Made by a program: the position numbers and the translations under genes. Shown piece by piece: positions 14,300 through 29,491 of a stretch of DNA of 64,000 bases. Position 1 is the stretch's first letter, and each line of letters opens with the position of its first letter. A model generated the notes under the pieces. That model was given only the letters and a program-made list of their open reading frames with translations, was not told the origin of the DNA and did no database searches. This DNA comes from Acidobacteriota bacterium. Its GTDB lineage: Bacteria; Acidobacteriota; UBA6911. The stretch spans positions 840 through 64,839 of the forward strand of contig JAFGAO010000068.1 in the NCBI GenBank assembly GCA_016933615.1, given 5' to 3'.

Positions 14300-14350
14300 G
14301 GTTCAGGATTAATGACAAATCGTTGAATCCTGAACGCTGAACGGGCAACG
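14300..14350 (+). repeat. heptad-type inverted repeat element (a)
   Basis: Starts 1 nt after the stop. GTTCAGGATT (14301-14310) pairs with AATCCTGAAC (14326-14335). The right arm is the heptads TGAATCC TGAACGC TGAACGG (14324-14344). Confidence 0.8.
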
Positions 14351-14360
14351 GAGTGTGTTT

Positions 14361-14528
14361 ATGGCAGATGAATTTCAGGGCAAGGTGGTTCTGATGACGG
14401 GAGGCTCCTACGGCATCGGCCGGTCGGCAGCCATCGGTTTTGCCCGAAGGGGTGCTCGTGTCGTAGTTGCGGATATCGACCAGAAGGATGGGAGACGGAT
14501 TCCGATAGCGACGTTCAACGGTTTATAA
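14361..14528 (+). pseudogene. SDR N-terminal remnant (55 codons)
   Basis: MADEFQGKVVLMTGGSYGIGRSAAIGFARRGARVVVADIDQKDG.. then a stop. Only the Rossmann beta1-alphaA-beta2 (TGxxxGIG) is present, where a full SDR is ~250 aa. It has its own ACGGAG SD. Confidence 0.55.
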
Positions 14529-14531
14529 CCA

Positions 14532-14557
14532 TGAACACTGAACGATGAACCTTGAAC
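14532..14557 (+). repeat. solo TGAAC heptad array (x4)
   Basis: TGAACAC TGAACGA TGAACCT TGAAC at 14532, 14539, 14546 and 14553, with a strict 7-nt period. It abuts the truncated SDR remnant. Confidence 0.85.
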
Positions 14558-14579
14558 AGCATTACAGGAGAAAACACAA

Positions 14580-16061
14580 ATGAGTTCAGAGTATCGGGCA
14601 CTTATCAACGGAGAGCTTTGTGAAGCATCCACAAAAGAAACCATGGAAGTCATCAATCCCGCAAACGGCAAAGTCGTCGGGCATGCGCCTAAATGCGGCC
14701 CTGTCGAAGTGAACCGGGCGGCTGAAGCGGCCTACAAAGCGGCACCGGCCTGGGCGGAAAAATCGCCGACCGAAAAGGCGGCGATATTCTTCAAAATGGC
14801 GGGGCTCCTCCGAAGGCATCGCGACGAATGGGCGAAACTGGAAACCATGCAGTACGGGGGGCCTATTTTTAAAACCTTTAATTTCGACATGGTTTTCGAT
14901 GCGGAGCATTTTGAATTCATGGCCGGCGTGGGACGGGCCGTTACGGGCAAATCCCTCCCGGTCGGGCCGCAGGCCATTTCCGTGACTCTGCGCCAGCCCC
15001 TGGGCGTTGTCGGTCTGATCACGCCCTGGAATTTTCCTCTGGTCACGGCTATTTCCAAAATAACCCCGGCGCTGATGATGGGAAACACGGCCGTAGTTAA
15101 GCCCGCCTCCTGCGCTCCGCTGACCGTGCTGAAACTGGGGGAGCTTGCCGTTGAAGCCGGGTTTCCTCCGGGCGTTCTGAATATCCTATCGGGTCCCGGC
15201 TCTTCGGTCGGGGAAGCCATCGTGAACCATCCTTACGTGGCCAAGATCAACTTTACGGGAGATTCGGAAACCGGCAAGCGCATCCTGGGTCTGGCAAGCG
15301 CCGCCGTTAAGCCGGTCGCGTGCGAACTGGGCGGCAAAAATGCCTTCATCGTCATGCCAGATGCGAACATGAAAGCCGCGGTCGAGGGCGCCGTATGGGG
15401 AGGATTTTTCAATTCGGGCCAGAACTGCGGCGCTTCGAGCCGCTATCTCATCCACGAGTCGGTCTATGACGAATTCGCAGAAAAGTTCGTGGAAGCCGCG
15501 AAACAGCTGCGCGTTGGGGATCCATTGAATCCCGACACCATGATCGGACCGGTCGCCTACAAGGGACACAGGGACAACATTGAAAAATTCGTCGAGCGGG
15601 CCAAAAAATCCGGTGCCGGGCTGCTTCTCGGCGGGGAGCGCCCGAACACGCCGGAGACGAAGGACGGGTATTTCGTCGCACCCACCATCTTCGGGGACTG
15701 CGACCCGAAATCGGAGATCATGCAGGAGGAAGTGTTCGGTCCTGTCGTCGCCCTGGCAAAATTCAGCACGCCCGAGGAAGCCGTGGCCCTGGCCAACGAT
15801 TCGCGGTTCGGCCTGTGCGCCTCCATCTGGACCAGGGACATACGGCAGGGGCTCGTCATGGCCAAACAGCTCAAAGTAGGCACCGTGTGGCTGAACCAGC
15901 ACCTGTCGATCGTGTTCGAATGTCCGTGGGGAGGCTGCAAGGAATCCGGCCACAGCAAGGAAAACTCCATCATGGTGCTTGACGAATACAGCATGATGAA
16001 AAACGTTTGGATCGATCTTGTAGGAACTCCGGCGACGCCCTGGGAAGGCAAGTTCGACTAA
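14580..16061 (+). CDS. NAD(P)+-dependent aldehyde dehydrogenase
   Basis: 493 aa. 'ELGGKNAFIV' and the catalytic-Cys region 'FNSGQNCGASSR' are ALDH superfamily hallmarks. Confidence 0.9.
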   Translation: MSSEYRALINGELCEASTKETMEVINPANGKVVGHAPKCGPVEVNRAAEAAYKAAPAWAEKSPTEKAAIFFKMAGLLRRHRDEWAKLETMQYGGPIFKTFNFDMVFDAEHFEFMAGVGRAVTGKSLPVGPQAISVTLRQPLGVVGLITPWNFPLVTAISKITPALMMGNTAVVKPASCAPLTVLKLGELAVEAGFPPGVLNILSGPGSSVGEAIVNHPYVAKINFTGDSETGKRILGLASAAVKPVACELGGKNAFIVMPDANMKAAVEGAVWGGFFNSGQNCGASSRYLIHESVYDEFAEKFVEAAKQLRVGDPLNPDTMIGPVAYKGHRDNIEKFVERAKKSGAGLLLGGERPNTPETKDGYFVAPTIFGDCDPKSEIMQEEVFGPVVALAKFSTPEEAVALANDSRFGLCASIWTRDIRQGLVMAKQLKVGTVWLNQHLSIVFECPWGGCKESGHSKENSIMVLDEYSMMKNVWIDLVGTPATPWEGKFD

Positions 16062-16062
16062 A

Positions 16063-16108
16063 GGTTCCCCGTTTCGAGTTTCCCGCTATGCCTTCAACGG
16101 GAAACGAA
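16063..16108 (+). repeat. heptad-type inverted repeat element (c)
   Basis: Heptads GTTCCCC GTTTCGA GTTTCCC (16064-16084). GTTTCCCG (16078-16085) pairs with CGGGAAAC (16098-16105). It starts 2 nt after the ALDH stop. Confidence 0.8.
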
Positions 16109-16116
16109 TTAAAGGT

Positions 16117-17838
16117 TTGGATATGAATCCATCAACGCATCCGGGTAAAGTACTGGATCTTCAAGAAGCTGTAGGACGTTACGTAAAGCCCGGGATGACG
16201 CTGCACCTCGCCGCCGGCATCGGCGGCCCCAGCGCCGCGGTTTGCGAGATCATCCGGCAGTTCCGGGATAACGATCCCGGGTTCACCCTGATTCAAAGCA
16301 CCGTGACCGGACATAGTCTCAACCTCGTTCATGCCAGGCTGGTAAAAAAGCTTATCTGTTCCGTGTGTGCGAATATCTCCGCCTCCGGACGTCCGAGTCG
16401 GGTAATTCAGAATGCAATTGAAGAAAAACAGGTTGCAATGGAGAACTGGACGCTGAATTCCCTGCAGCAGCGCCTTATGGCCGGCGCGTTCGGGGTGCCC
16501 TTCATGCCCACCCGCTCCATCGTCGGGAGCAGCATAGCCGAAGAAAACGGTGAAACGTTTAAAAACATTGAAGATCCGTTCGGCTCGGGAGCCGCAGTCG
16601 GGCTGGCGGGCGCTCTCGTGCCCGATATTTCCATCATCCATGGATGCGTTGCGGACTCCGAAGGCAACACTATTGCAGCCGCTCCCTACGGGGAGGATCT
16701 CTGGGGCGCCCTGGCCAGCAGTGGAGGCGCCGTCGTCACCGTCGAGAAAATCGTTCCCACGGAGTTCATTCAGAGATACGCCGCCCTGGTCAAAATCCCC
16801 GCTTACGCGGTGAACGCCGTGGTGGCGGCCCCCCTGGGACTGCATCCGTTTTCCTTGGCCAACCCGGGCATCGTCGGTATGCAACCCTATGAAAAGGACG
16901 TGGATTTTCTCGACACCCTCTATGAAGCTTCCGCCGGCGATGATACGCTGGATGCATGGATTCATGAATGGGTTCTTCGGTGCGAAAACCACAGCCAGTA
17001 CCTCGACAAGCTCGGTGAAAAAAGGATTGCGGATCTTAAAAGAAAGTCCGGGAAGGTGAAAACCGCCCCGCCTCCGGCGCCGCCGGCCCTAATCAAAGCG
17101 GATCAGGAATTCAAACCAAAGGAAATGATGCTGATTGCCATGGCAAGGGAAATATTGACCAGCGTGACCCGGAAGGGACACAAGGCCGTGCTTGCGGGCG
17201 CGGGCCTGGCCGCTACAGCGGCATTCCTGGCCTATTTCCGGAGCGTGCAAAACGGCCGGGCCGGATTCGAACTGGCTACCGGCAACGGCCAGATCGGCTA
17301 CACGCCCGTCGCGGGCCAATCCATACTCGCCGGCGAAGCCAATGTGAGAACGTCGAAAATGCTGACCGACACAACCGTGATGCAGGGCGTCATTGTGGGG
17401 GGAGCGAATAACCGGTGCCTGAGCGTTCTCGGCGCCGGCGAAATGGACCGGTTCGGCAACATAAACTCCACGACGGCTTCCGACGGCAAGTTTCTCGTCG
17501 GTTCCGGGGGCGTCAACGATGCGCTCAACGCGCGCGAAGCCATCCTCTGCTTGAAGCAGTCCAAAGACCGGTTCGTGGACCGGCTTGCCTATGTGACGGG
17601 CCGGGGCGGAAACGTAACGACCGTGGTATCGAACATGGGCATTTTCAGGAAGGCGGATTCCAAGGGCGAACTGCATCTGGAGGCGTGCTTCCCCGAAACT
17701 CGCGGCCGGAGCATCGAAGAGAAGGTCCATGAAATTCGAAATCATTGCGGGTGGGAGCTTAAGACGGCGCCCGCAGTTGAGGAAATTCCCCGGCCGTCTC
17801 CGGAGGAACTCCAGCTTCTCCGCTGGCTGAGTCCCTGA
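16117..17838 (+). CDS. family-I CoA-transferase, fused alpha+beta domains (glutaconate/3-oxoacid type)
   Basis: 573 aa. The N-terminal half resembles GctA/ScoA ('GMTLHLAAGIGG', 'FMPTRS'). A Pro/Ala linker 'KTAPPPAPPALIK' joins it to a beta-like half ('GAGEMDRFGNINST', 'GSGGVNDA'). Confidence 0.75.
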   Translation: MDMNPSTHPGKVLDLQEAVGRYVKPGMTLHLAAGIGGPSAAVCEIIRQFRDNDPGFTLIQSTVTGHSLNLVHARLVKKLICSVCANISASGRPSRVIQNAIEEKQVAMENWTLNSLQQRLMAGAFGVPFMPTRSIVGSSIAEENGETFKNIEDPFGSGAAVGLAGALVPDISIIHGCVADSEGNTIAAAPYGEDLWGALASSGGAVVTVEKIVPTEFIQRYAALVKIPAYAVNAVVAAPLGLHPFSLANPGIVGMQPYEKDVDFLDTLYEASAGDDTLDAWIHEWVLRCENHSQYLDKLGEKRIADLKRKSGKVKTAPPPAPPALIKADQEFKPKEMMLIAMAREILTSVTRKGHKAVLAGAGLAATAAFLAYFRSVQNGRAGFELATGNGQIGYTPVAGQSILAGEANVRTSKMLTDTTVMQGVIVGGANNRCLSVLGAGEMDRFGNINSTTASDGKFLVGSGGVNDALNAREAILCLKQSKDRFVDRLAYVTGRGGNVTTVVSNMGIFRKADSKGELHLEACFPETRGRSIEEKVHEIRNHCGWELKTAPAVEEIPRPSPEELQLLRWLSP

Positions 17839-17859
17839 TTGACGACTCCGGATAATCGT

Positions 17860-17930
17860 TTTACGATTGAAATGCTGCATGACGATCGGCCAGGATCCTC
17901 AGGCTTATCCCGAAGAATTTCAATCGTAAA
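17860..17930 (+). repeat. 14-bp perfect inverted repeat in an intergenic gap
   Basis: TTTACGATTGAAAT (17860-17873) and ATTTCAATCGTAAA (17917-17930), separated by a 43-nt spacer, between two CoA-transferase genes. Confidence 0.7.
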
Positions 17931-17941
17931 TTGAAAATGAG

Positions 17942-19174
17942 GTGAACATGAGCGGCGGACCATTACAGGGCATAAGGGTTATCGAGTGCGCCGGCTATCT
18001 GAGCGCCCCTACGGCATGCTATATGCTGGGGGACCTGGGCGCCGAAGTAATCAAGATAGAGGATCGGGTGACGGGGGATCCCTCACGGGGGACTTCGGCC
18101 GTTTTCGGCTCCTCCATGACGCTGGCCAACGGCGAAAACATCCTGTTCGAAACGGCGAACCGGAATAAAAAAAGCCTGACGCTGGATCTGAAAAAGGAAA
18201 AAGGCCGGCAGCTGCTCTACGAGCTGGTTTCCAGAGCGGACGTTTTCTGCACCAACTTCACCCAAAAGGCCATAGAAAAACTCAAGATCGATTTCGAAAC
18301 CCTGAAGAAATACAACCCGAAACTGGTTTACGGCCTTGCCACCGGCTACGGCCTCAAGGGCCCCGAGAGCGCCCGGCGCGCCTTCGACAGCGTCGCGCAG
18401 GCCCGCTCCGGAATTATGTACGCTCTAGGCGGCGAACCGGACGCCCCCCCGGCCCAAATCGGAGGCCCTGTCTTCGACCAGATGACCGGAACCCTGCTGG
18501 TTTATGCAATCCTGGCAGCCCTGATCGCGCGCGACAGGCAGGGCAAGGGCCAGCAGGTTGAGGTGTCGCTCCTGGGATCGGGAATTCATCTGCAGGCGTA
18601 TAACCTGAACACGGCCCTTCTGCGGGGGCGCCAGATCCCCAGACCTTCCAGAAGGTCTCTGAAAAATCCGATGGCGAACCATTTCGAATGCGCCGACGGC
18701 GAATGGATTCTTCTTTCGGAGCCCCAGGCCGACCGTTTCTGGCCCGCTTTCTGCAATGCGCTGGGCATCCAGCAGCTGGAAAAGGATGAAAAATATGCCG
18801 ATGCAGCCGTCCGCAGGGAGAATTTCCGGGAATTGCTGGATATTATTGAACGGGTCTTCATAACCAAAACCAGAGACGAATGGATGAAAATCCTGGACGA
18901 AAAGGGCGAAGGCATCGCCTACTCTCCCGTCCTGAGACCGACGGACCTCGCCAACGACGCCCAGGCGCTCGAAAACGGCTACATCGCCACCATCGAGCAT
19001 CCGTCCCTGGGAGCCATCAAGATGGTGGGCAATCCGGTCTACTTCAGCGATACGCCGGTAACGGTAGACGGATATGCACCCTGCTTCGGCCAGAACACGG
19101 AGGAAGTCCTTCTGGAGGTCTGCGGCTGCGACTGGGACAAAATACAGGAGCTAAAGGACGAGGAAGTCATATAA
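17942..19174 (+). CDS. family-III (CaiB/BaiF) CoA-transferase
   Basis: 410 aa. 'GIRVIECAGYLSAPTACYMLGDLGAEVIKIE' and C-terminal 'GQNTEEVL' are typical of the family. The start is GTG 17942 or ATG 17948. Confidence 0.9.
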   Translation: MNMSGGPLQGIRVIECAGYLSAPTACYMLGDLGAEVIKIEDRVTGDPSRGTSAVFGSSMTLANGENILFETANRNKKSLTLDLKKEKGRQLLYELVSRADVFCTNFTQKAIEKLKIDFETLKKYNPKLVYGLATGYGLKGPESARRAFDSVAQARSGIMYALGGEPDAPPAQIGGPVFDQMTGTLLVYAILAALIARDRQGKGQQVEVSLLGSGIHLQAYNLNTALLRGRQIPRPSRRSLKNPMANHFECADGEWILLSEPQADRFWPAFCNALGIQQLEKDEKYADAAVRRENFRELLDIIERVFITKTRDEWMKILDEKGEGIAYSPVLRPTDLANDAQALENGYIATIEHPSLGAIKMVGNPVYFSDTPVTVDGYAPCFGQNTEEVLLEVCGCDWDKIQELKDEEVI

Positions 19175-19178
19175 GAAG

Positions 19179-19242
19179 GTTCCCCGTTCAGGGTTCAGCA
19201 TTGAAAGTCAACCTTGAACGATGAATCCTGAACCTTGAACGG
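19179..19242 (+). repeat. heptad-type inverted repeat element (d)
   Basis: GTTCCCC GTTCAGG GTTCAGC (19179-19199) faces TGAACGA TGAATCC TGAACCT TGAACGG (19215-19242). The 15-nt arms 19184-19198 and 19228-19242 pair with one G.U position. Confidence 0.85.
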
Positions 19243-19259
19243 TAAGCGGGAGTCGATCG

Positions 19260-20726
19260 ATGATAACAACCTTAAGGAATAAGCGGCTGGATGAAAAAGA
19301 ATTTCTGAAAATGCGGGATCCGGTTCTCGACCTATGGCCGACGGGGCGCGAGGTGGATCTCGACGAAGCTGTCGAATATCAAAAGCAGCTGCCCGACTCC
19401 AAGAACTGGCACAAGCTGGCCCGGAAAATGAATGCGGAAGGCCGCACCGCCATATTCCCCAGGGCGGGAACCGGGCTGCTCGAGGCCCAGATCCGGCTCT
19501 CCCGGAAACTCGAGGAATCGTGCGTTCCCTTCATCCCGGTAACGTCCGACAGCTACACGCGCCAGCTGGAATTCGAAAAGGTCGACGGCATCCTGGATGA
19601 AATGCGAAAGACCGGCCGCAACCTGCTCAACGGCTTCCCCCTCATCAACTACGGGGTGAAACAGACGCGCAGACTTATTGAGAGCGTCACCGTGGGCGCC
19701 TTCAACCCCAGGCTTTCGCTCAAATCCTACAAGCTGGCGACCGAAATCTCCTTTGCCGCCGGCATGACGGCCGTCGCCGCATGCCCCTTCATCTCCTGGG
19801 CGGCCTATGAAAAGGACGCGACGCTGGAAGAATCCATGGCCGTCAACCAGTACGTGCACCGGCTGATCGGCTACTACGCCGACCGTGGAGTGGTCATTTC
19901 CACGGACAACCACGGATGGATTCTGACGGGGATGCAGCCGATGACCGTAAACCTGGCCACCACCATTGCCGACGCCATAATGGTCGCCGAGCAGGGGGGG
20001 AGGAGCATCACGTCGGTCGTTCATCTGATGGGCAACATGGCCCAGGATCTTGCCTGGATTCGCGTGACCCCAAGACTGCTGAGGGAATACCTGGACAAGC
20101 TGGGATACAGGGATGTGGAGATCGCGGGCGTTTTCGCGCAGCACACTCCCCTTTTCCCCATGCCCCAGAGCATGGGCGGCGCATTCGCTTTCCCGAACTA
20201 CACGGCCGTCGTCGCCGCACTCGGGAAAACGGAAGCCGTATCCATCCGCACCATCGACGAAGCTCTCGGTGTTCCTACGGAAGAATCGCACACCCTCAGT
20301 TACGAATCCGCAAACTGGCTGCTCCAAATAGTCCGTGGCCAGAAGTTCGAACTGCAAAGCGCCCAGGTCGACGAGGAAGCCGCCGTTGCCGAGGCTGAAA
20401 TACGCGCGTTCATGGACAGGATCCTGGAAGTCGGCGACGGCGACGTAATCGTCGGATGCCTGAAGTGCGTCGAAGAAGGGTTCCTCGATTCCAGTTTCAG
20501 TCCCAACAAACAGGTTCGCGACCAGGTGATAGGCATCAAGGACAGCCGCGGTGCGATCCGGTGGAGGGAATTCGGCAACCTTCCGCTGCCGGAAGAGATC
20601 AAGAAATTCCACCGTGAAAAAGTGGCGGAAAGAGAAAAAGCGGAAGGCCGCGAAATGGACTACGACGCCCTCGTTCAGGATTTCTGGGCTTTCAGCAAAG
20701 GCCGGCTAACCGGGAAACCGGAATAA
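19260..20726 (+). CDS. glutamate mutase epsilon (GlmE/MutE)-like B12-dependent mutase, large subunit
   Basis: 488 aa, collinear with clostridial methylaspartate mutase E as I remember it: 'LDLWPTGREVDLDEAVEY', 'FPRAG', 'SYTRQ', 'LLNGFPLINYGVK', C-terminal 'FSKGRLTGKPE'. Confidence 0.85.
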   Translation: MITTLRNKRLDEKEFLKMRDPVLDLWPTGREVDLDEAVEYQKQLPDSKNWHKLARKMNAEGRTAIFPRAGTGLLEAQIRLSRKLEESCVPFIPVTSDSYTRQLEFEKVDGILDEMRKTGRNLLNGFPLINYGVKQTRRLIESVTVGAFNPRLSLKSYKLATEISFAAGMTAVAACPFISWAAYEKDATLEESMAVNQYVHRLIGYYADRGVVISTDNHGWILTGMQPMTVNLATTIADAIMVAEQGGRSITSVVHLMGNMAQDLAWIRVTPRLLREYLDKLGYRDVEIAGVFAQHTPLFPMPQSMGGAFAFPNYTAVVAALGKTEAVSIRTIDEALGVPTEESHTLSYESANWLLQIVRGQKFELQSAQVDEEAAVAEAEIRAFMDRILEVGDGDVIVGCLKCVEEGFLDSSFSPNKQVRDQVIGIKDSRGAIRWREFGNLPLPEEIKKFHREKVAEREKAEGREMDYDALVQDFWAFSKGRLTGKPE

Positions 20727-20729
20727 TAA

Positions 20730-20817
20730 GGTTTCCCGTTCTGCGTTTCACGTTTCCCGTTAAAATTAATAATTACCAAACGAGAAACGGGGAGCCGGAA
20801 ACGGGGAACGGTTTTTT
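20730..20817 (+). repeat. heptad-type inverted repeat element (e) ending in a T-run
   Basis: GTTTCCC GTTCTGC GTTTCAC GTTTCCC (20731-20758), an AT-rich loop, then GAGAAAC GGGGAGC CGGAAAC GGGGAAC (20782-20809), followed by G and TTTTTT (20812-20817). Confidence 0.8.
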
Positions 20818-20834
20818 GAAGGAGAACCATCAAA

Positions 20835-21257
20835 GTGACCAATCCAACCGTGATAACGGGAACCGTGGGCAAAGATGCGCACGTCATAGGAACAAAAATA
20901 TTATCCCGCGCCCTGCGGGAAGCCGGTTTCAACGTCGTGGAACTGGGGATCCTGACTCCCCCCGAGGAATTCATTCAGGCCGCCCTCGACAACAAAGCCG
21001 ATGCCATTCTCATGAGCTCGCTTTATGGAATGGGAGAGAACGATGTGCAGGGATTCAAAGAGAAATGTATCCAGGCGGGGCTGAATGATGTGCTTCTTTA
21101 CATCGGCGGGAATCTGAGCGTGGGCAAACACGACTTCTCCGAAGCCGAAGCGACCTTCAAAAAACTCGGCTTCGACCGCGTGTACCCGCCGGCATCGGAC
21201 GTGAAAAAGGCCATCGCGGATCTCCGGGCCGATCTGAAAGCCAAAGGAAAAGCTTAG
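20835..21257 (+). CDS. glutamate mutase sigma (GlmS/MutS)-like B12-binding subunit
   Basis: 140 aa. DxHxxG cobalamin motif 'GKDAHVIGTK', plus 'AGFNVVELG', 'ADAILMSSLYG' and 'LLYIGGNL' as in MutS/GlmS. GTG start 11 nt after AAGGAG. Confidence 0.85.
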   Translation: MTNPTVITGTVGKDAHVIGTKILSRALREAGFNVVELGILTPPEEFIQAALDNKADAILMSSLYGMGENDVQGFKEKCIQAGLNDVLLYIGGNLSVGKHDFSEAEATFKKLGFDRVYPPASDVKKAIADLRADLKAKGKA

Positions 21258-21265
21258 GAAATACA

Positions 21266-22507
21266 ATGCGCCCAAGTATGCTGGGAGGCTATCGCGCCCT
21301 GGACCTGACCGATGAAAGGGGATTCCTGTGCGGCAAGATCCTGGCCGAACTCGGAGTGGACGTGATCAAGGTGGAGAAACCCGGGGGCGATCCCGCTCGG
21401 AAGATCGGACCATTCTGGCACGACCAGGCGGACCCTGAAAAAAGCCTGTACTGGTTTGCATACAACAGCAGCAAACGCGGAATCACCCTCGACCTGGAAT
21501 CCGTGGAAGGGAAAAGCCTCTTTCGCGGCCTGGTCCAAACGTCCGATTTCGTCGTTGAATCCTTCGATCCGGGCGTATTGGGCAAGCTTGGGTTCGGCTA
21601 CCGGGAATTGCGGCGCATCAAAAAGGACATCATCCTCACGTCGATCACTCCGTTCGGCCAGTCCGGGCCCTACAGCCGGTACAAGGCTGCGGACCTGACC
21701 CTCATGGGAATGGCCGGGGAACTTTTCATGACCGGTGATTCCGACAAACCCCCGGTCAACATCAGCATGCCGCAAGCCTGCATGCATGCGGGGGCGGATG
21801 CGGCCGTCGGTTCCATGCTGGCGCACCACCACAGAAGAATGACCGGCGAAGGCCAGCACGTGGACGTAGCCATGCAGCACAGCGCCGCCTGGTTCCTGGC
21901 CCAGACCATCCCGCACTGGGAAATGGAAAACCTGATCCTCGGTCGCGTGGGTACCTTCCGCACCAGCAGCCGCGGCACGCTGCAGCGACAGGTCTGGCCG
22001 TGCAGGGACGGATACATATTCTTTTTCATGATCGGGGGGCAACAGGGGGCCAAGACCGGCTACCAGCTGGTGCAATGGATGGAAGAAGAAGGAATGGCCG
22101 ACGAATTTCTTAAGGGCTATAAATGGGAAGAATTCGACATGGCCACGGCCACGCAGGAGCTGATCGATAAAATCTCCCGGCCGATCGCGGAATTTTTCCT
22201 GACTCGAACCAAGAAGGAAGCCCTGGATGCCGCGATGTCCAGAAACATTTCCATCTGCCCCCTTATGGGCAACCGGGACCTGCTCGAAGACCCGAACCTG
22301 GCCGCCAGGGGCTTCTGGAAGCCGATTGCGCATCCCCACTTGAGAACCACGATCCCCTATCCCAGGCAGTTCGCGCGATCCTCGGAAAACGATACGGAGA
22401 CCCGGTTCCGGGCTCCACGCATCGGTGAACACAATACGGAAGTCTACAGGGAACTCGGCCTGTCAGCCGACCGGGTGGAAGAATTGAAAAAACAGGGAGT
22501 TATATAG
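21266..22507 (+). CDS. family-III (CaiB/BaiF) CoA-transferase
   Basis: 413 aa. 'YRALDLTDERGFLCGKILAELGVDVIKVEKPGGDP' and C-terminal 'GEHNTEVYRELGL'. Confidence 0.9.
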   Translation: MRPSMLGGYRALDLTDERGFLCGKILAELGVDVIKVEKPGGDPARKIGPFWHDQADPEKSLYWFAYNSSKRGITLDLESVEGKSLFRGLVQTSDFVVESFDPGVLGKLGFGYRELRRIKKDIILTSITPFGQSGPYSRYKAADLTLMGMAGELFMTGDSDKPPVNISMPQACMHAGADAAVGSMLAHHHRRMTGEGQHVDVAMQHSAAWFLAQTIPHWEMENLILGRVGTFRTSSRGTLQRQVWPCRDGYIFFFMIGGQQGAKTGYQLVQWMEEEGMADEFLKGYKWEEFDMATATQELIDKISRPIAEFFLTRTKKEALDAAMSRNISICPLMGNRDLLEDPNLAARGFWKPIAHPHLRTTIPYPRQFARSSENDTETRFRAPRIGEHNTEVYRELGLSADRVEELKKQGVI

Positions 22508-22511
22508 AAAA

Positions 22512-22575
22512 AACGGCTTCCGTTCAGGGTTTCCCGTTCCCCGTTGCGATTCCAGGACAGAAACGGGAAACCCCT
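22512..22575 (+). repeat. heptad-type inverted repeat element (f)
   Basis: GTTCAGG GTTTCCC GTTCCCC GTTGCGA (22522-22549). A perfect 12-bp stem joins GGGTTTCCCGTT (22527-22538) and AACGGGAAACCC (22562-22573). Confidence 0.85.
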
Positions 22576-22589
22576 TAAGGGCGAAACGT

Positions 22590-24689
22590 ATGGGAATCAA
22601 TAGTAAATATGAAAAGCTGCTGGAGCCCGGATATATAGGAAAGGTGAAAACCCGGAACCGAATGATCAAATCGGGCGCCGGCATGCTGATGTGGCACCAG
22701 GACGACCTGCGTATGCGCCCTGAGGTTCTGGCGTTTTACGAAGGGATCGCCAGGGGCGGCGTCGGCCTGCTGATCGTGGAATCGCCGACCGTCGATTACC
22801 CGAGAGGCGTCCGGTGGAAAGAACGGTACCGGATCGACGACGACAAATACATACCGGGCCTTGCGGAGCTTGTGGAAATCATTCACAGTCACGGCTGCCC
22901 CACATTCATGCAGATGAACCATGACGGCCCCTGGGAGGTCAAGCTGCCTTTTGTGCCGGAGCCGATGTACGACGGCCCGCCTATCGGGGCGTCCGCCGTC
23001 AGCTTCACGGAAGGAGCCGCCGACTTCCACAAGGAACCGCCCCATCCGCTCACGGTCGGGGAGATCCAGGAAATCGTGGAAAAGTTCGCGGCCGCGGCAG
23101 TCCGGGCCCGGAAGGCGGGGTTCGACGGAGTGGACATCAATGCCGCAAGCAGCCACCTCCTGCACAACTTCTTCTCCCCCTTCTTCAACCGGCGCGAGGA
23201 CGCCTACGGCGGGAGTGTCGAAAACAGGGCCCGTTTCGCGGTGGAAGTGGTTCAGGCAATAAAAAAGAGCGCCGGTTCCGATTTCCCTCTCTCCATTACC
23301 ATCAACAATTTCGAATCGGGCCGGGTTATCGGCGTCGACGACAGCCGGTGCCTCACCCACGAGGACGCCCGCATGATCGCCCGGCTTCTGGAGCATGCGG
23401 GGGCCGACGCCATCCAGGTCCGAAGCCATATCCTGGGGTATCACGTCGGCGCCTACCTTCCCGACACGCTTTTCTATCCGGAACCTCCCTTCGCGCCGGA
23501 ACTCTTCCCGGAACAGTACGATGCCAGCGACATGGGCGTCGGCGCCAACATACCCGGGGCGGCCGGGATCAAGAGCGCCGTTTCCATCCCGGTCATCACC
23601 GTCGGCAAACTCGACGCGGATCTTGGCGAGAAAGCCATCCGGGAGGGCAAGATTGATTTCATCGCGATGACCCGGCGCCTTCTGGCCGACCCGGATTATC
23701 CCAGAAAAATCGCGGAAGGAAGGCTGGAGGATATTCAGCCCTGCACCGGATGCGACAACTGCCTGGGCAGCCGCCGCTGCCGCATCAACGGACTTCTGGG
23801 CACGCCGTACAACACCATAGAAAAAGCGGAGCAAAAGAAAAAGGTGCTCGTCATCGGCGGCGGCCCGGCCGGCATGTCGGCCGCCCGCGTATCCGCGCTC
23901 CGGGGCCATGACGTGACCCTTTACGAACAGGCGACCGCACTTGGCGGATTGCTGCCGGTTGCGTCGATTGTAAAGGGCCCCCGCCCCGAAGACCTCTCTC
24001 TAATTGTGAACTATTTCTCCCGACAGCTGTCAAAGCTCGGCGTCAAGGTGAGACTCGGCAAGACGGCGGATTTGGCCGCCGTCGAAGCGCTCAAACCGGA
24101 CGTGGTGTTCCTGGCCGCGGGCGGCACTTCAACCGTGCCCGGGATTCCGGGCATCGACGGCCCGAATGTCGTCAACGGAGCGGCGCTGCATCAAAAACTT
24201 AAATTCGCTCTGAAGTTTTTCAAGCCTGAGACCATCCGGAAGCTGACTAAACTATACATGCCTCTGGGTAAAAGGGTGGTTGTCATCGGCGGCGCCATCC
24301 AGGGGTGCGAACTGGCAGAATTTCTCACCAAGCGGGGCCGCGAAGTCACCATTGTCGAGACCGGCGAGATGCTGGGCGACGGCATGGTGGATGCCATGAT
24401 GGACTACCTGTTCAACTGGTTCAGGAAAAAAGGGGTCAAAATGATCAGCGGCGTCAGGGAATACGTCGAAATCATCGATAAAGGCCTGACCATTATAGAC
24501 CGAGACGGCAACAGACGGCTCCTCGAAGCGGACAGCATCGCGACGGCCCTGCCGCTGACGCCCAACAACGAGCTTCTGGAAAAACTGAAAGCCACCGTGC
24601 CGGAAGTCTATGCAATCGGGGACTGCAATGAGCCGCTGCTTATAGCGGACGCCATCGGGACCGGTCTCCGTACCGCCCGGGAAATTTAA
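22590..24689 (+). CDS. OYE-family NADH:flavin oxidoreductase with [4Fe-4S] and FAD/NAD(P) domains (2,4-dienoyl-CoA reductase / enoate reductase / BaiCD-like)
   Basis: 699 aa. N-terminal TIM barrel ('RNRMIKSGAG', 'MQMNHDG'), Cys cluster 'CTGCDNCLGSRRC', then 'KKVLVIGGGPAGMSAA' and a second Rossmann fold 'RVVVIGGAIQGCELAEFL'. Confidence 0.9.
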   Translation: MGINSKYEKLLEPGYIGKVKTRNRMIKSGAGMLMWHQDDLRMRPEVLAFYEGIARGGVGLLIVESPTVDYPRGVRWKERYRIDDDKYIPGLAELVEIIHSHGCPTFMQMNHDGPWEVKLPFVPEPMYDGPPIGASAVSFTEGAADFHKEPPHPLTVGEIQEIVEKFAAAAVRARKAGFDGVDINAASSHLLHNFFSPFFNRREDAYGGSVENRARFAVEVVQAIKKSAGSDFPLSITINNFESGRVIGVDDSRCLTHEDARMIARLLEHAGADAIQVRSHILGYHVGAYLPDTLFYPEPPFAPELFPEQYDASDMGVGANIPGAAGIKSAVSIPVITVGKLDADLGEKAIREGKIDFIAMTRRLLADPDYPRKIAEGRLEDIQPCTGCDNCLGSRRCRINGLLGTPYNTIEKAEQKKKVLVIGGGPAGMSAARVSALRGHDVTLYEQATALGGLLPVASIVKGPRPEDLSLIVNYFSRQLSKLGVKVRLGKTADLAAVEALKPDVVFLAAGGTSTVPGIPGIDGPNVVNGAALHQKLKFALKFFKPETIRKLTKLYMPLGKRVVVIGGAIQGCELAEFLTKRGREVTIVETGEMLGDGMVDAMMDYLFNWFRKKGVKMISGVREYVEIIDKGLTIIDRDGNRRLLEADSIATALPLTPNNELLEKLKATVPEVYAIGDCNEPLLIADAIGTGLRTAREI

Positions 24690-24755
24690 AGCAGTAAGCA
24701 GTTGGCAGTAATCTGATTCGGATTCGGGCTCAGATGAAATAGGGTATAAGTGACG

Positions 24756-24780
24756 GTAGGGGCGAACCTTGTGTTCGCCC
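24756..24780 (+). repeat. REP-like palindromic element, single copy
   Basis: GTAGGGGCGAACCTTGTGTTCGCCC, in the same orientation as the 8977 array. Confidence 0.9.
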
Positions 24781-24830
24781 TGGTAACGAAAAGTTGGCAG
24801 GAGGCGGGAGAAAGAAGCCAGGAGTCAGAA

Positions 24831-26057
24831 GTGACAGACACTGGGAAAAAGGTATTTGATGATCTGAAGATTGCGGCTTTCAGCTGGGCCATGGTCGGCC
24901 CGCTGACCCTGAAATTCTTCGCCGATTACGGGGCGGCGGTTATCCGCGTGGAAACGAGCTTGCGCCCCTGCGTCACACGGACCTCGGCGCCCTACAAAGA
25001 CAACATCCCCGGCATCAATCGCAGCGGCTACTTCAACCATTTCAGCGCCAACATGATGAGCCTGTCGCTGAACATGAAAAGCCCGCAGGGTCTGGATGTG
25101 GCCAAAGAGCTGATTGCCTGGTCGGATGTCGTCATGGAGAACTTCACCCCGGGAGTCATGGACAAATGGGGCCTCGGCTTCCAAGAGCTGAAGAAGATCA
25201 AGCCGGACATCATCATGGTGCGGCAGAACGGCTTCGGCGTCGAAGGCCCCTACAAAAACCTGGCCGCCTTCGGGATGATCCTTTCCGCCATCGCCGGAAT
25301 CCCCAACTACATCGGTTGGCCGGACGGAGGGCCCCTTCCCGTCGGCGTGGGCGCCTATACCGACAGCATCAGCCCGCGTTTCGCCTCGGCCGCCCTGATC
25401 GCGGCCCTGGAATACCGGGACAGGACCGGGAAAGGCCAGCTCATCGACCTGGCGCAATTTGAAACCGCTCTCTATTTTCTGATGCCGGGGCTACTCGATA
25501 CCTGTGTCAACGATCGCGAGCCTGTCCGAAACGGCAATGCCGTCGAATGGGCCGCGCCGCACAATGTCTACCCCTGCAAGGGAAAGGAGCGGTGGTGCAC
25601 CATCGCCGTGACCGAAGAAGTCCAGTGGCCGGCGCTTTGCAGCGCCGTGGGCAAACCCTGGCTGGCGCAGGATCCGCGGTTCGACACCCTGAAGCGCAGG
25701 AAAGAAAATGAAAAGGAGCTGGACGAGGAAATAGCATCCTGGACGAAAGAGCGGACGCCGGAAGAAGTGATGAACGTGCTTCAGGCGGCGGGTGTTGCGG
25801 CCGGAGTCGTCGAAAATGCATCCGACGTGTTCGAGGATCCCCAGTTGCGCCGGCGGGGGCTTTTCTGGCCCATGGAGCACGGCGAGATGGGCGCATTCAC
25901 GCACCTGGGAACCAGCATGGTCCTTTCGGAAACACCGGCGCAGGCGGAAGCGCCGAGCCCGTGCATCGGGGAGCATAACGAATATATACTCACAAAAATC
26001 CTGGGCAAGACGGATGATGAATTTGTCGAGCTGCTAGCCGCAGGCGCGCTTACATAA
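24831..26057 (+). CDS. family-III (CaiB/BaiF) CoA-transferase
   Basis: 'LKIAAFSWAMVGPLTLKFFADYGAAVIRVE' and C-terminal 'GEHNEYILTKILG'. Start moved to GTG 24831, 6 nt after GGAG, because the track start at 24750 lies inside the REP element. Confidence 0.85.
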   Translation: MTDTGKKVFDDLKIAAFSWAMVGPLTLKFFADYGAAVIRVETSLRPCVTRTSAPYKDNIPGINRSGYFNHFSANMMSLSLNMKSPQGLDVAKELIAWSDVVMENFTPGVMDKWGLGFQELKKIKPDIIMVRQNGFGVEGPYKNLAAFGMILSAIAGIPNYIGWPDGGPLPVGVGAYTDSISPRFASAALIAALEYRDRTGKGQLIDLAQFETALYFLMPGLLDTCVNDREPVRNGNAVEWAAPHNVYPCKGKERWCTIAVTEEVQWPALCSAVGKPWLAQDPRFDTLKRRKENEKELDEEIASWTKERTPEEVMNVLQAAGVAAGVVENASDVFEDPQLRRRGLFWPMEHGEMGAFTHLGTSMVLSETPAQAEAPSPCIGEHNEYILTKILGKTDDEFVELLAAGALT

Positions 26058-26075
26058 TACTACGGAGGTTTCATC

Positions 26076-26954
26076 ATGGATTTGGAGTTTATTCGGTACG
26101 AAAAAGAGGAACAGGTTGCATTTATGACATTGAACCGGCCGGACCGTCTCAACGCCATCGGACCCGAAATTTACCGCGACTGGACGGCGGCCCTGGATGA
26201 AGCGGAGCAGGATGACGACGTAAAGGTTATCGTCTTCAAGGGTGCGGGGAAGGCCTTCAGCGCCGGGGCCGACCTGACGGGCGTCGGGTACGTTTACGGC
26301 ATGAAGGATCCCAAGCCGGGGGAAAGAGGCAGGCAGCGCATCCCCCTGAGGGTAAAATTCGAATTCGACCGGCGCGTTTTTCTGGATTTTCACAGAAGGA
26401 TTCTTTTCTGCAAAAAGCTGACGATCGCACAACTCCATAAGTACTGCCTCGGCATCGCTTTCAATATCGTGTCGCACTGCGACATGATCATCGCCAGCGA
26501 GGATTGCCGGATGGGGCATGTCGAGGAGCGTCTCGGCCAGGGCGGCATGACGCTCACCCCCATCATGATACTCCGCTGCGGATTCACTCGGGCGATGGAG
26601 CTTTGCCTGACCGGCCGGACCTTCAACGGCAAAAAAGCCGCGGAATATCAGCTGATCAACAAGGCCGTGCCGGCGGACAAGCTCGACGAAGAGGTCCGGA
26701 ACCTGGCCTACGGCCTGTGCCTCCATCCCAAAGACGGCATCGCCGTCGGCAAGGCGATGCGGGAGATGATATACACGACTATGGGAATCGATCGCGGATT
26801 GGTGGACCACTACATAATGCACACGATGCAGACCAACCGGGTCCTGGATGAGGGCGAAGTCAATTTCTTCAAGATGAGAAGAGACAAGGGTGTTCGGGAA
26901 GCCGCCCACGAGAAGCACGATCGCTTCAAAGTCCTCGACGACTTCGACAATTAA
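26076..26954 (+). CDS. enoyl-CoA hydratase/isomerase family protein
   Basis: 292 aa. 'VAFMTLNRPDRLNA' and 'GAGKAFSAGADL'. Confidence 0.85.
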   Translation: MDLEFIRYEKEEQVAFMTLNRPDRLNAIGPEIYRDWTAALDEAEQDDDVKVIVFKGAGKAFSAGADLTGVGYVYGMKDPKPGERGRQRIPLRVKFEFDRRVFLDFHRRILFCKKLTIAQLHKYCLGIAFNIVSHCDMIIASEDCRMGHVEERLGQGGMTLTPIMILRCGFTRAMELCLTGRTFNGKKAAEYQLINKAVPADKLDEEVRNLAYGLCLHPKDGIAVGKAMREMIYTTMGIDRGLVDHYIMHTMQTNRVLDEGEVNFFKMRRDKGVREAAHEKHDRFKVLDDFDN

Positions 26955-26972
26955 AGCTTGGTGGATGCGAAG

Positions 26973-27052
26973 CCTTGGAGTGCGGCAGCTTGCTGCCGCC
27001 TTCGTTATATAGATTCCAAATCAAAGCGGCAGCTTGCTGCCGCACTCCAAGG
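26973..27052. repeat. composite inverted repeat (27-nt arms)
   Basis: CCTTGGAGTGCGGCAGCTTGCTGCCGC (26973-26999) and GCGGCAGCTTGCTGCCGCACTCCAAGG (27026-27052). Each arm also carries its own GCGGCAGC/GCTGCCGC mini-palindrome. The spacer is 26 nt. Confidence 0.85.
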
Positions 27053-27088
27053 ACTCTTCTTCGCATTACTATTTCAGGAGATGAAGGC

Positions 27089-28462
27089 ATGGATGCTGCA
27101 GTGGAATTTGCCCGGAATTTCGCGAATACGAAATACGAGGATCTTTCTTCCGAAGTCGTCGACGCGACGAAGAAGGAGATCCTGGATCTCATGGGTGTCG
27201 CCCTGGGCGGCATTTCCCAGCCGGGGGCTACGCACGTGCGCAGGCTCATGGAGGCATGGGGAGGCAAGGAAGAAAGCAGCATCATCGGCGGCAGCCTGAA
27301 GGTTCCGGCGCCGAACGCGGCCCAGGCGAACGCCACCATGGCGCACGCCCTGGATTTCGACGACGTGCACGAAGCGGCAGTCATGCACCCCGGGATAGCG
27401 GCCATCCCCGTTGCATTGGCCGTAGCGGAAGCAGAAGGAAATTTCAGCGGCAGGGAACTGATCACGGCTACGGCCCTGGGCGTCGACATGATGTGCCGTC
27501 TGGCCTTGGCGACCACCCCCGGTAAAAATCCGATCGACCTTGGATGGCACCTTACTTCCCTGTTCGGCTTTGTCGGATCTGCCGCTACGGCGGCCAGGAT
27601 TATGGGACTGCCCGAAGAAAAAATAGTCGATGCCATCGGTATCGGCTACCACCAGTGTGCGGGAAACGGCCAGTGCGTCAAAGACGGGGCGTTGACCAAG
27701 AGGCTCGGACCGGGATTCGCCATAAAAGGCGGCATCACCGCGGCTCTATTGGCGAAAATGGGCGTGACGGGATCGACGAACAGCTTTGAAGGCGAGTGGG
27801 GCCTCTACCAACAGTATATGGACGGGGATTACAGCCGGGAAATTCTCCTCGAGGACCTGGGCAAACGCTTCGAAGGTGTCCATGTCGCCATCAAGCCCTA
27901 TCCCTGCTGCCGGGGCATTCATCCCGCAATCGATGCCGGACTCGCACTGGCTATCGAAGACGGTGTCCGCAGCGAACACATCAAGGAAATTGTATTGACC
28001 GTGACGGAGGCGCACCTTTCCCTGCTCTGTACGCCTGAAGACGCTAAAAAATCACCCAGGAGCCCCGTAGACGCCCAGTTCAGCATTCCCTGGGGCGTCG
28101 CTTCGGCCATTGTGGGGAAACGGGTCGGTCTGGACAATTTCACGGAAAAAGCCATTACGAACAGCGATGTCCTGGAGGTCACACAAAAGATGCGGCTGGA
28201 GGTGGACGACGCGCTGAGCAAGCCCGGACCGGACCCGACGCGGATTAAGATTATTACGCATGACGGGAATGTGTTTGAGAAAGTGGTGCACACTCCCCTC
28301 GGCAGTCTTGATCGCCCCATGTCGTACGATGACTGCGCAAACAAATTCAGGGATTGCGCAAAAAGCCTCGATCCCGATCGTGTGGAACAACTCATAGAAC
28401 TGGTCGGAACACTGGAGCAGGTTGACGATATACGGGCAATAATTCAACTTCTAACAACATGA
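27089..28462 (+). CDS. MmgE/PrpD family protein (2-methylcitrate dehydratase-like)
   Basis: 457 aa from ATG 27089, 8 nt after GGAG. 'AVEFARNFANTKYEDLSSEVVDATKKEILD', 'HALDFDD', 'HPG' and 'KPYPCCRGIH' are typical PrpD-family blocks. Confidence 0.85.
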   Translation: MDAAVEFARNFANTKYEDLSSEVVDATKKEILDLMGVALGGISQPGATHVRRLMEAWGGKEESSIIGGSLKVPAPNAAQANATMAHALDFDDVHEAAVMHPGIAAIPVALAVAEAEGNFSGRELITATALGVDMMCRLALATTPGKNPIDLGWHLTSLFGFVGSAATAARIMGLPEEKIVDAIGIGYHQCAGNGQCVKDGALTKRLGPGFAIKGGITAALLAKMGVTGSTNSFEGEWGLYQQYMDGDYSREILLEDLGKRFEGVHVAIKPYPCCRGIHPAIDAGLALAIEDGVRSEHIKEIVLTVTEAHLSLLCTPEDAKKSPRSPVDAQFSIPWGVASAIVGKRVGLDNFTEKAITNSDVLEVTQKMRLEVDDALSKPGPDPTRIKIITHDGNVFEKVVHTPLGSLDRPMSYDDCANKFRDCAKSLDPDRVEQLIELVGTLEQVDDIRAIIQLLTT

Positions 28463-28469
28463 ATGATTC

Positions 28470-28490
28470 ATTCGGCGACAGGCGCCGAAT
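28470..28490 (+). terminator. short GC hairpin after the PrpD-like gene (no U-tract)
   Basis: ATTCGGCG (28470-28477), loop ACAGG, CGCCGAAT (28483-28490). Confidence 0.25.
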
Positions 28491-28564
28491 TACCGGGAAG
28501 CCAGGAGCCGGGATAGAAACGAGCTTTTAATTTTCAATCTTCAATCAAGTGAGGAGGCAGGCCA

Positions 28565-29410
28565 ATGGGGGACGTTTTAAAAGGAAAAGTGGCATTCGTT
28601 ACCGGTGCGGCGGCGAAGCGGGGTATGGGAAGGGCCGTTGCCGTGCGGCTGGCCAAGGAAGGCGCCGACGTGATGGTGACCGATGTATTTGCATCGCCCA
28701 AAAGCGCCTGGGCCGGGGATGAAGGCTGGAAAGGGCTGGAAGATGTCGTAAAGGAAATTGAAGCGGTCGGTCGTAAAGCCGCTTCGGCCGTGGCAAACGT
28801 GGTCAACCTGGCCGAATGCGAAGCGGCCGTCAAGGACACGATCGACAAACTGGGCCGGATCGACATCCTGGTCAACTGCGCCGGAACACGCGGCCCCGTC
28901 GGCGTGAACATTGTCGACGGCGACGTAAAGGACTGGGAAGCGCTGTTTGACGTAAACGCAATCGGTACCATGGTCATATCCAAAGCCGTCGGCAAGGAAC
29001 TGATCCGCCAGAACCGGGGCGGCAAGATCGTGCACATCGCTTCGGCCGCGGGCAAGCTTCCCTGCCCCGGAAGCGCCGCCTATGCAGCCTCCAAATGGGC
29101 CGTTATCGGGATCACCCAGGCCCTGGCCATGGAACTGGCCCCCTACAAGATCAACGTCAACTCGATCAATCCCGGCTTCTTTGCCACCAACCTGCGCGAC
29201 GACGACGCGACCATGCACAGCAAGAAAAAAGGGATTACGGTGGAAGAGTTCCGGAAGGACGAATACAAGATGCTTTCTGACATGGTTCCCCTGAAGCGTA
29301 TGGGAACGGTTGACGACATCGCCAACCTTATCTTCTTCCTGGTCACAGACCAGTCGGAATACCTGACGGGTGTGGATATTAATATTACGGGCGGCACATT
29401 GATGCATTAA
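28565..29410 (+). CDS. short-chain dehydrogenase/reductase (SDR)
   Basis: 281 aa. 'VAFVTGAAAKRGMGRA' and the YxxxK site 'YAASKWA'. Confidence 0.9.
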   Translation: MGDVLKGKVAFVTGAAAKRGMGRAVAVRLAKEGADVMVTDVFASPKSAWAGDEGWKGLEDVVKEIEAVGRKAASAVANVVNLAECEAAVKDTIDKLGRIDILVNCAGTRGPVGVNIVDGDVKDWEALFDVNAIGTMVISKAVGKELIRQNRGGKIVHIASAAGKLPCPGSAAYAASKWAVIGITQALAMELAPYKINVNSINPGFFATNLRDDDATMHSKKKGITVEEFRKDEYKMLSDMVPLKRMGTVDDIANLIFFLVTDQSEYLTGVDINITGGTLMH

Positions 29411-29413
29411 AGA

Positions 29414-29466
29414 CGTTTCCCGTTCCCGGTTTCCCGTTTAAAAAAACGGCGCGATACGGGAAACTG
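29414..29466 (+). repeat. heptad-type inverted repeat element (g)
   Basis: GTTTCCC GTTCCCG GTTTCCC GTTTAAA (29415-29442). GTTTCCCGT (29429-29437) pairs with ACGGGAAAC (29456-29464). Confidence 0.85.
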
Positions 29467-29491
29467 CAACAGACCAACGGAGGATAGCAAA

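Follow-up and report, generated by a model that had tools for sequence, protein, structure and literature searches.

Heptad-periodic palindromes in an acidobacterial operon and their proposed relation to S23p cassettes

Intergenic heptamer repeats have been recorded in bacteria since 1990, among them the cyanobacterial STRR and the repeats of Xanthomonas, Geobacter and Beggiatoaceae, and have never been explained. A second puzzle is the S23p family (PF05635), whose structures have been solved and for which we know of no function outside diversity-generating retroelements (DGRs). Here we analyze a set of heptad-periodic elements in a 64-kb stretch of an Acidobacteriota genome (contig JAFGAO010000068.1, positions 840 to 64,839; hereafter the window), where seven of them lie within one long operon. 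The feature is real and not specific to this operon: the copies seen here are probably orphans from a widespread family of cassettes in which an S23p gene is armed with heptad arrays. Heptamer-repeat palindromes are an already known kind of element, and their association with an S23p gene appears to be undescribed. No paper combining heptanucleotide repeats with 23S intervening sequences was found in the searchable literature, which is no proof of novelty, and the titles and abstract openings of the S23p/PF05635 papers that were found do not mention flanking repeats. Together, the two puzzles yield one testable hypothesis, namely that S23p binds or propagates its own heptad word.

The closest described repeats are the heterogeneous heptanucleotides of Xanthomonas, (GGGANTN)n, and of the cyanobacterial STRR (GGGGAYT in Nostoc) (Rehm et al. 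2015, PMC4692102). Like the window family, these are intergenic tandem arrays of mostly about four 7-base units, in which a core is conserved and other positions vary freely, and each Xanthomonas genome contains 70-75 convergent inverted pairs, comparable to the paired arms found here (PMC4692102). The core of the window family is instead GTT(Y), which leaves no G-quadruplex option, and its arrays are tied to S23p genes, a link that PMC4692102 does not mention. In Geobacter metallireducens, paired hepta- and octanucleotides were catalogued as global regulator binding sites of classes 1-3 and read, without test, as IHF/HU sites (Aklujkar et al. 2009, PMC2700814). They likewise form tandem runs of four to five units, each 7 or 8 bases long (GTTGCTYN, MTYCTGA), in opposite-strand pairs at variable distance, occur also between operon genes (proBA), and are unique to some species of the genus. 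Their words differ from those of the window, however, and no associated gene was reported. Repeats of TAACTGA, which read GTTATCA on the other strand, have been catalogued in Beggiatoaceae (PMC4679880); by their wording, the Beggiatoaceae and cyanobacterial TAACTGA repeats may belong to the same GTT-core superfamily.

On the protein side, S23p is encoded in intervening sequences (IVSs) of 23S rRNA in Coxiella, Leptospira, Brucella and Xanthomonas, and in Coxiella RNase III cuts the 28-bp terminal stem (Warrier et al. 2016, PMC4990558). The IVS is regarded as a selfish element whose open reading frame (ORF) is prone to decay (PMC4990558) and, like the cassettes described below, it encloses a PF05635 ORF in terminal inverted repeats, which pair into a long stem. 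In contrast to the IVS, the cassettes occupy mRNA spacers rather than rRNA helices, their arms are tandem heptads, the window copies are ORF-less, and cutting by RNase III would apply to them only by analogy. PF05635 is also homologous to the Avd protein of DGRs (PMC10053308).

S23p cassettes at the junctions of the operon

A preliminary description of this DNA, made from the sequence alone, had listed seven elements, and all seven were confirmed at their coordinates (Table 1) as arrays of phased GTTYNNN / NNNRAAC heptads. What it missed is the link to S23p (PF05635) cassettes. In the proposed model, the complete unit would be a small S23p gene, encoding a four-helix bundle, between inverted arrays of 7-base units, with an invariant unit core (here GTT, mostly GTTY) specific to the enclosed S23p clade. 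The window elements, none of which holds a PF05635 ORF between its arms, are probably ORF-less orphan members of this family.

The architecture is fully displayed at the junction of genes g8 and g9 in the related genome G022. There, five heptads of the GTTTCCC type come after the stop codon (four are GTTTCCC/GTTTCCG, the other GTTCCCC); a 129-aa ORF is next, and the units GGGAAAC CTGAAAC GGGAAAC complete the series. The encoded protein scored 102 bits on PF05635 and matched a pentameric Xanthomonas protein (Protein Data Bank 2GSC) at 1e-8, and the predicted fold closes a stem of the outer arms around the whole ORF (z -4.0). At this junction, the spacer of the window and G023 is another one, ~150 nt long. 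No target-site duplication was visible at g8–g9 of G022, the one recent gain, where the cassette replaces ~150 nt and its boundaries are uninformative.

The junction between a short-chain dehydrogenase (SDR) gene and g2 (SDR–ALDH) supplies a comparative series that runs from intact cassette through decayed ORF and solo palindrome to single arm. A full SDR gene stands 5′ of the g2 ortholog in G003, G018, G022, G012 and G001. In G003, it is followed by a GTTCCCA arm, an intact S23p gene, a TGGGAAC arm and the g2 ortholog. G018 retains the left arm and a truncated S23p gene, with the right arm absent, and G022 has a solo GTTTCCC palindrome. In the window, 46 conserved SDR codons, part of a stub matching the N-terminal part of the intact G003 SDR at 67% identity (E 8e-20), precede the solo right arm at 14530-14557. 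The order SDR, cassette, ALDH recurs on metagenome contigs L206 and L210. The solo arms and palindromes at this junction are therefore decay products of an ORF-bearing cassette, and a second cassette explains the scarred region of the window at 14300-14579. More generally, the ORF may often be lost to leave a solo palindrome or a single arm, and the solo palindromes at the other window junctions would be of the same origin.

Cassettes settle in intergenic spacers and are long inherited at a junction. The operon is syntenic from g2/g3 to g12/g13 in eight congeners. Seven of the eight carry an ortholog of the g4–g5 palindrome, with other words, and a loop common to the window and G004 makes the orthology clear; a palindrome is found at g5–g6 in almost all eight and at g7–g8 and g12–g13 in most. 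At g12–g13, the order of units is equal in four genomes, and G004, G022 and G023 show hardly any change in the left arm, although 4-fold degenerate sites are only 56-64% identical. The words vary by genome, with GTTTCCC throughout in G022, GTTCAGG, GTTCAAG and GTTCACC in G023, and GTTTCCC and GTTTACG in G015. A clear (ATTGACG)n / (CGTCAAT)n heptad palindrome occupies g3–g4 in G041 and G015. In G012 and G044, elements are lost or degraded and the operon is intact.

The arms gain, lose and rewrite units while both stay matched. Left arms paired more strongly with their own right arms than with those of other elements (-1.12 vs -0.93 kcal/nt, Wilcoxon p=0.005), and the two arms therefore co-vary. 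Such co-variation can be mutational, through hairpin-templated correction. In the proposed model, units would change by slippage, and arm-to-arm correction would keep the arms matched.

Arm words and S23p clades

We inspected 33 S23p loci from the genus and class and found about 30 of them flanked by inverted periodic arrays, mostly of period 7 and in a few cases of period 6 or 8. A maximum-likelihood tree of the 33 proteins grouped them by arm word. The GTTY-word clade (support 100/100) unites proteins of G022, G024, G003 and G015 and is flanked in the genus by GTTCAGG, GTTCAAG, GTTTCCC and GTTCCCA; its successive outgroups carry GTTGGAC, GTTAGCAC and GTTRCAG. Other clades correspond to GATTCCA (97/89) and ATTGACG/ATTACGA (100/100), with further groups for CAGGAGA and GTCGGCA/GTCAGTA, and AATTCTC/AATTTTC-type words flank S23p in G005 (L195). 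Several clade members lie at non-orthologous places, judged by their differing flanks.

The clade-to-word correspondence held in a set that is independent of the genus tree, comprising 80 metagenome contigs that encode GTTY-clade S23p at 60-80% identity. At least three phased GTT units were present within 200 nt upstream in 72 of 78 loci, compared with 0 in shuffles and 4 when TTG served as the control. On the downstream side, at least three AAC units were present in 42 of 72 loci, and at least one arm was found in 68 of 70. The commonest words were GTTCAGG, GTTCAGAG, GTTCAAAG and GTTCAAG, with GTTTCCC present at lower frequency; GTTCAGG, GTTCAAG and GTTTCCC are common to the window and the metagenome cassettes. 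Loci L202, L226, L242, L270, L274 and L278 have a complete small palindrome (GTT run, AAC run) 5′ of the S23p ORF and another array 3′ of it; environmental cassettes thus often have the layout hairpin-ORF-hairpin instead of a single stem. In these cassettes, 7-nt units alternate with 8-nt units (GTTCAGG / GTTCAGAG).

More widely, the pattern (GTTYNNN)3GTTY was present in 29 of 41 related genomes, match counts ranging from 0 to 314 per genome, and a control pattern read backward was near zero within the genus. PF05635 was detected in 32 of the 41 relatives, and seven of the nine genomes that lack it also lack GTTY arrays. The cognate (GTTY) clade is confined to G022, G006, G024, G015 and G003, with a broken copy in G018, and genomes that have it contain more GTTY arrays (p=0.004, uncorrected for phylogeny). 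In a scan of one genome per species, the matches listed included arrays from Acidobacteriota, Bacteroidota, Verrucomicrobiota, Cyanobacteria, Planctomycetota, Desulfobacterales and others, and many of these listed arrays have an inverted partner. An S23p ORF abuts the array in 4 of 120 cross-phylum GTTY loci, and two of these four are closest to the GTT-word clade. On a Planctomycetaceae contig (L116), GTTATCA units share one array with GTTCTCA and GTTTTCA.

The preliminary description had judged the strict heptad phasing to be more than a simple terminator hairpin needs, and the period scan of the assembly bears this out: an invariant GTT at period 7 with free positions 5-7 points to sequence-specific recognition and not to a mere hairpin. 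Each S23p may recognize, or help to propagate, its own word; it is not obvious that shared inheritance by itself would hold the core constant as the proteins diverge to 45-50% identity, although this falls short of proof. We tentatively raise a broader possibility, in which S23p proteins read 7-base-phased repeats in a sequence-specific manner, with GTT, GATTC, ATTRACG, CAGGAG and GTCRNYA as clade words. Together with their arrays, they might then form an unrecognized, widespread class of selfish or mobile cassettes that left the bacterial heptamer repeats as relics and was the source of the S23p IVSs of rRNA. Assignment of 2GSC, the solved Xanthomonas S23p, to one word clade was dropped, as it scored similarly against two clades. 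The idea of five units per pentamer found no support, with arms spanning 3 to 17 units.

Distribution in the genome and rival explanations

The window genome was available as 3.62 Mb in 298 contigs (82% complete), and its genes were called with a crude, home-made model that gave 85.5% coding sequence. A scan for (GTTYNNN)x3, suggested in the preliminary description, returned 43 arrays of at least three units, compared with 1 in a shuffled copy; the arms were ordered GTTY...RAAC 16 times and in reverse order twice. In a motif-free period scan, 195 trimers persisted over four units at period 7, against 34-58 at periods 5, 8, 10 and 11. GTT/AAC was the most persistent period-7 trimer (63; runner-up 17), and the other phases of the unit persisted 4-9 times less often than GTT. 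With GTT constant and positions 5-7 changing from one unit to the next, neighboring units are not simple slippage copies. Of the earlier unit definition, the GTT core at period 7 held, but position 4 need not be Y: the relaxed unit GTTNNNN gave 94 arrays, 79 of which are intergenic. Similarly, confinement to the block at 12854-30313 is true of GTTY arrays in the window but not of the genome, which contains 36 further clusters in ++, --, +- and -+ spacers in addition to the seven (of 43) within the 16-kb operon block.

A strict scan for identical units found only 13 arrays, owing to unit heterogeneity, and was replaced by a degenerate, word-independent detector. Period-7 arrays were present in 163 of 1444 spacers of 40-400 nt (~11%), compared with 45 in shuffled spacers and 41 in size-matched coding pieces. 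The family is indifferent to context, with arrays in 10.5-11.4% of co-directional, 13.5% of convergent and 10.4% of divergent spacers. Placement after stop codons, described earlier as characteristic of the elements, therefore reflects operon geometry and is no family trait. At C89:2358-2640, three tandem units of ~122-129 nt, each composed of (GTTCCCA)3-5 and a conserved stretch of ~90 nt, lie directly 3′ of the stop codon of a large outer-membrane-like gene, and the contig ends soon after. A second, larger family comprises ~25 copies of composite palindromes of ~150 nt (e.g., C240:10990-11141, C131:2472-2603, C117:25476-26805 and C269:7432-8872), with GTTGCAG/GTTGCAC/GTTGAAC arms and the conserved inner ends GTTAAAAACAAA..GC.TCGTTGCAC plus complement. 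Words of the GTTGCAG type also flank an S23p gene in G018 (L184).

REP-type palindromes serve as exonuclease barriers and, in E. coli, can stabilize upstream mRNA, and the Correia elements of Neisseria are cut by RNase III. The operon elements must be co-transcribed with their neighbors. By inference only, the most likely effect of the transcribed copies would be that of intercistronic stem-loops, as RNase III targets and/or barriers to 3′-exonucleases; sequence signs of selection for an RNA role were not seen. The part in intercistronic processing or termination proposed in the preliminary description found no backing at sequence level. A search for intrinsic terminators (GC-rich stem, short loop, U-tract) gave no plus-strand hit at any element, and the region as a whole had 18 hits versus 23.5 expected, with terminator and promoter totals at or below shuffle expectation; promoter-like hits were likewise absent from the elements. 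The only element that ends in a T-run, 20730-20817, has a 24-nt loop and was not flagged. Among 23 operon elements, 15 folded better in sense and 8 in antisense (p=0.10), with 52 versus 47 G-U pairs, which provides no usable strand signal. Rfam, searched at permissive E-values over 12000-31000, returned nothing at the elements and only weak microRNA-like hits at the unrelated 26964-27070.

Several rival explanations were also weighed. If the arrays were plain heptanucleotide simple repeats, slippage would grow the runs, hairpin-templated repair would make the palindromes, and S23p would be an unrelated passenger. The arrays are indeed 7-base, head-to-tail, over-represented and mainly intergenic; their copy number and wording change quickly between species, they occur in all intergenic contexts and in many phyla, most are solo, and heptamer over-representation is a known general phenomenon (PMC4692102). 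What makes this account quite improbable is that neighboring units vary at positions 5-7 while GTT is kept, that arrays stand at 72 of 78 S23p loci compared with ~11% of ordinary spacers, and that the arm word tracks the protein clade. Intercistronic RNA elements selected by the host, which would set processing, segmental stability or translational coupling and hence enzyme stoichiometry, could account for elements being retained at equivalent junctions by congeners that differ at 36-44% of 4-fold sites. They would also account for the abutment of elements on the stop codon and the next ribosome-binding site, with the first GTT 7 nt from the first base of the stop codon in about half, and for the concentration of 7 of the 43 genome clusters in the 16-kb block. 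We nevertheless consider such selection unlikely: sense-strand bias and terminator features are absent, the right arms at g12–g13 have decayed while the left arms are kept, arrays are as frequent in divergent spacers, which are downstream of no gene, and G012 and G044 keep an intact operon with lost or degraded elements.

A further reading takes the arrays as phased DNA sites bound by a chromosomal protein, which might be S23p in trans or, as proposed for Geobacter metallireducens, a nucleoid protein (IHF/HU); this would suit a GTT core at a strict 7-bp period that is strand-symmetric and indifferent to context. Besides the Geobacter precedent (PMC2700814), heptamer repeats of Nostoc are reported to affect expression through a partner that the preprint does not name (10.1101/2022.06.06.494920). 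The cognate S23p is missing from the window genome, however, we know of no protein that binds the arrays, and a location between stop codon and ribosome-binding site inside an operon is odd for transcription control; on balance, this explanation is also quite unlikely. The preliminary description further considered a small mobile or REP-like element evolving by slippage. The elements do form a dispersed, REP/MITE-like family with quickly changing units and words, and slippage itself would be a plausible source of these changes. As in REP, BIME and REPIN families, they are short extragenic palindromes in many copies, dispersed, often paired and often between operon genes. Mobilization by a RAYT (TnpA-REP) transposase is nonetheless highly improbable: Y1_Tnp (PF01797) had 0 matches in the 82%-complete genome, whereas 6 of 14 control genomes matched. 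REP/RAYT membership was rejected on this ground. A fixed 20-40-nt palindrome consensus and a GTAG-type head are also lacking: nothing but the GTT core is constant, the tandem heptads of the arms vary in words and unit numbers, and the associated gene is a different one. MITEs such as Correia/NEMIS of Neisseria offer another likeness, in that ORF-less copies far outnumber ORF-bearing ones, inverted repeats are terminal, and copies are co-transcribed with their neighbors. Inverted arms are present here as well, but they are internally repetitive and of variable length, no target-site duplication was seen at the G022 g8–g9 cassette, and in the search for a MITE-type autonomous transposase the only associated gene was S23p, a four-helix bundle that is no known transposase.

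Several points weigh against descent of the window elements from S23p cassettes. Such descent is shown at one window junction only (SDR–g2), and an ORF was found at g4–g5, g5–g6, g7–g8 or g12–g13 in 0 of 9 genomes. The match between protein and word could reflect co-inheritance rather than recognition, and we know of no enzymatic or binding activity of S23p. It is also possible that the order was the reverse, the palindromes being there first and S23p genes inserting into them later; neither a target-site duplication nor a clean empty site was seen. Co-occurrence of S23p and arrays among relatives (odds ratio 18.9, p=0.001; Spearman 0.57) is uncorrected for phylogeny. Cognate S23p is absent from the assembled 82% of the window genome and from the array-rich G023, G005 and G002; arrays therefore persist without it, and the copies in the window genome are relics or orphans. 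As for an effect on RNA, the sense folding advantage has p=0.10 and three of the seven hairpins are weak. The sole sizeable S23p homolog of the window assembly (C222:7846-8226) is a start-less remnant covering Pfam positions 19-85, of a clade other than GTTY and without flanking arrays, and a shorter fragment lies at C86:5583-5708.

Elements and spacers of the operon

Table 1. Periodic elements and associated features in the window, with RNA folding values where computed
Feature	Position	Strand	Description	RNA fold
Heptad palindrome	14300-14350	unstranded	GGTTCAGGATT ... AATCCTGAAC, then GCTGAAC GGGCAAC; directly 3′ of g1 stop	-19.6 kcal/mol, z -4.35 (-4.4 rounded)
SDR stub	14361-14528	+	SDR deletion scar: 46 conserved N-terminal codons, then out-of-frame tail	
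Solo right arm	14530-14557	unstranded	CATGAAC ACTGAAC GATGAAC CTTGAAC; remnant of S23p cassette at SDR–g2; one arm, no inverted repeat	z only -1.3
Heptad element	16063-16108	unstranded	left GTTCCCC GTTTCGA GTTTCCC plus one right unit; 8-bp stem	weak hairpin, z -0.46
Other-word palindrome, g3–g4 spacer	17839-17941	unstranded	ACGATTGAAAT / ATTTCAATCGT, ATTGA-type	
Heptad palindrome, g4–g5	19179-19242	unstranded	GTTCCCC GTTCAGG GTTCAGC ... TTGAACG ATGAATC CTGAACC TTGAAC	-30.6 kcal/mol, z -6.08
Heptad palindrome, g5–g6	20730-20817	unstranded	4 left units (20731-20758: GTTTCCC GTTCTGC GTTTCAC GTTTCCC), loop starting GTTAAAA, 4 right units (complements: GGGAAAC, CCTGAAC), T-run	-34.5 kcal/mol, z -3.34
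Heptad palindrome, g7–g8	22512-22575	unstranded	left arm 22522-22542	weak hairpin, z -1.7
g8–g9 spacer	24690-24749	unstranded	heptads GCAGTAA GCAGTTG GCAGTAA	
g11–g12 spacer	28463-28564	unstranded	short TTCAATC-type heptad run, immediately 5′ of ribosome-binding site	
Heptad element, g12–g13	29414-29466	unstranded	4 left heptads plus decayed right arm	z -2.7

Not all seven elements are inverted repeats with stems, as had been described: the one at 14532-14557 is a solo right arm, the hairpins are uneven (z -6.1 to -0.5), and stems of ~20 bp are predicted for only two to three of the seven. Of the reported start 1-5 nt past the stop codon, the element at 22512 is an exception, with its heptads at 14 nt; the others start at 1-4 nt.

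The 12854-30313 block has nine spacers that reach 50 nt, and every one of them carries a periodic element of some word, with GTTY at six junctions, the ATTGA type at g3–g4, GCAGTAA at g8–g9 and TTCAATC at g11–g12; the spacers of the block, in effect, consist of such elements. In the window and its congeners, operon junctions of 8 nt and 18 nt never carry a heptad palindrome. The GTTY elements of the block fill almost exactly the space from the stop codon to the next ribosome-binding site. For annotation, this means that intra-operon spacers of 50-110 nt in this lineage would largely be relics, not to be taken as dedicated regulatory sites unless transcript evidence says so.

Counted by eye over ~30 junctions (window stops 19174, 20726 and 29410 plus orthologs), the first GTT begins 4 nt after the stop (TAA/TAG), or 7 nt from its first base, in about half. 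At these junctions, the final AAC unit and the next Shine-Dalgarno sequence (AACGGGAG) share bases. Where arrays abut the stop codon, the base of the stem may couple translation across the junction.

Other repeats share these spacers. At g10–g11 (26964-27070), a strong composite palindrome, GGAGTGCGGCAGCTTGCTGCCGC ... GCGGCAGCTTGCTGCCGCACTCC, represents a separate GC-rich, REP-like family, with copies of the motif at g11–g12 in G022 and G023 and a related one at g7–g8 in G004. The stretches 30611-30697 and 24760-24790 hold a tandem array of an 11-mer, (GGGCGAACACA)n, with AAGGTTC...GCCCC as its bounds, and a related hairpin, GGGCGAACCTTGTGTTCGCCC. The hairpin falls inside the called N-terminus of g9, and the true start of g9 is therefore probably further downstream than called.

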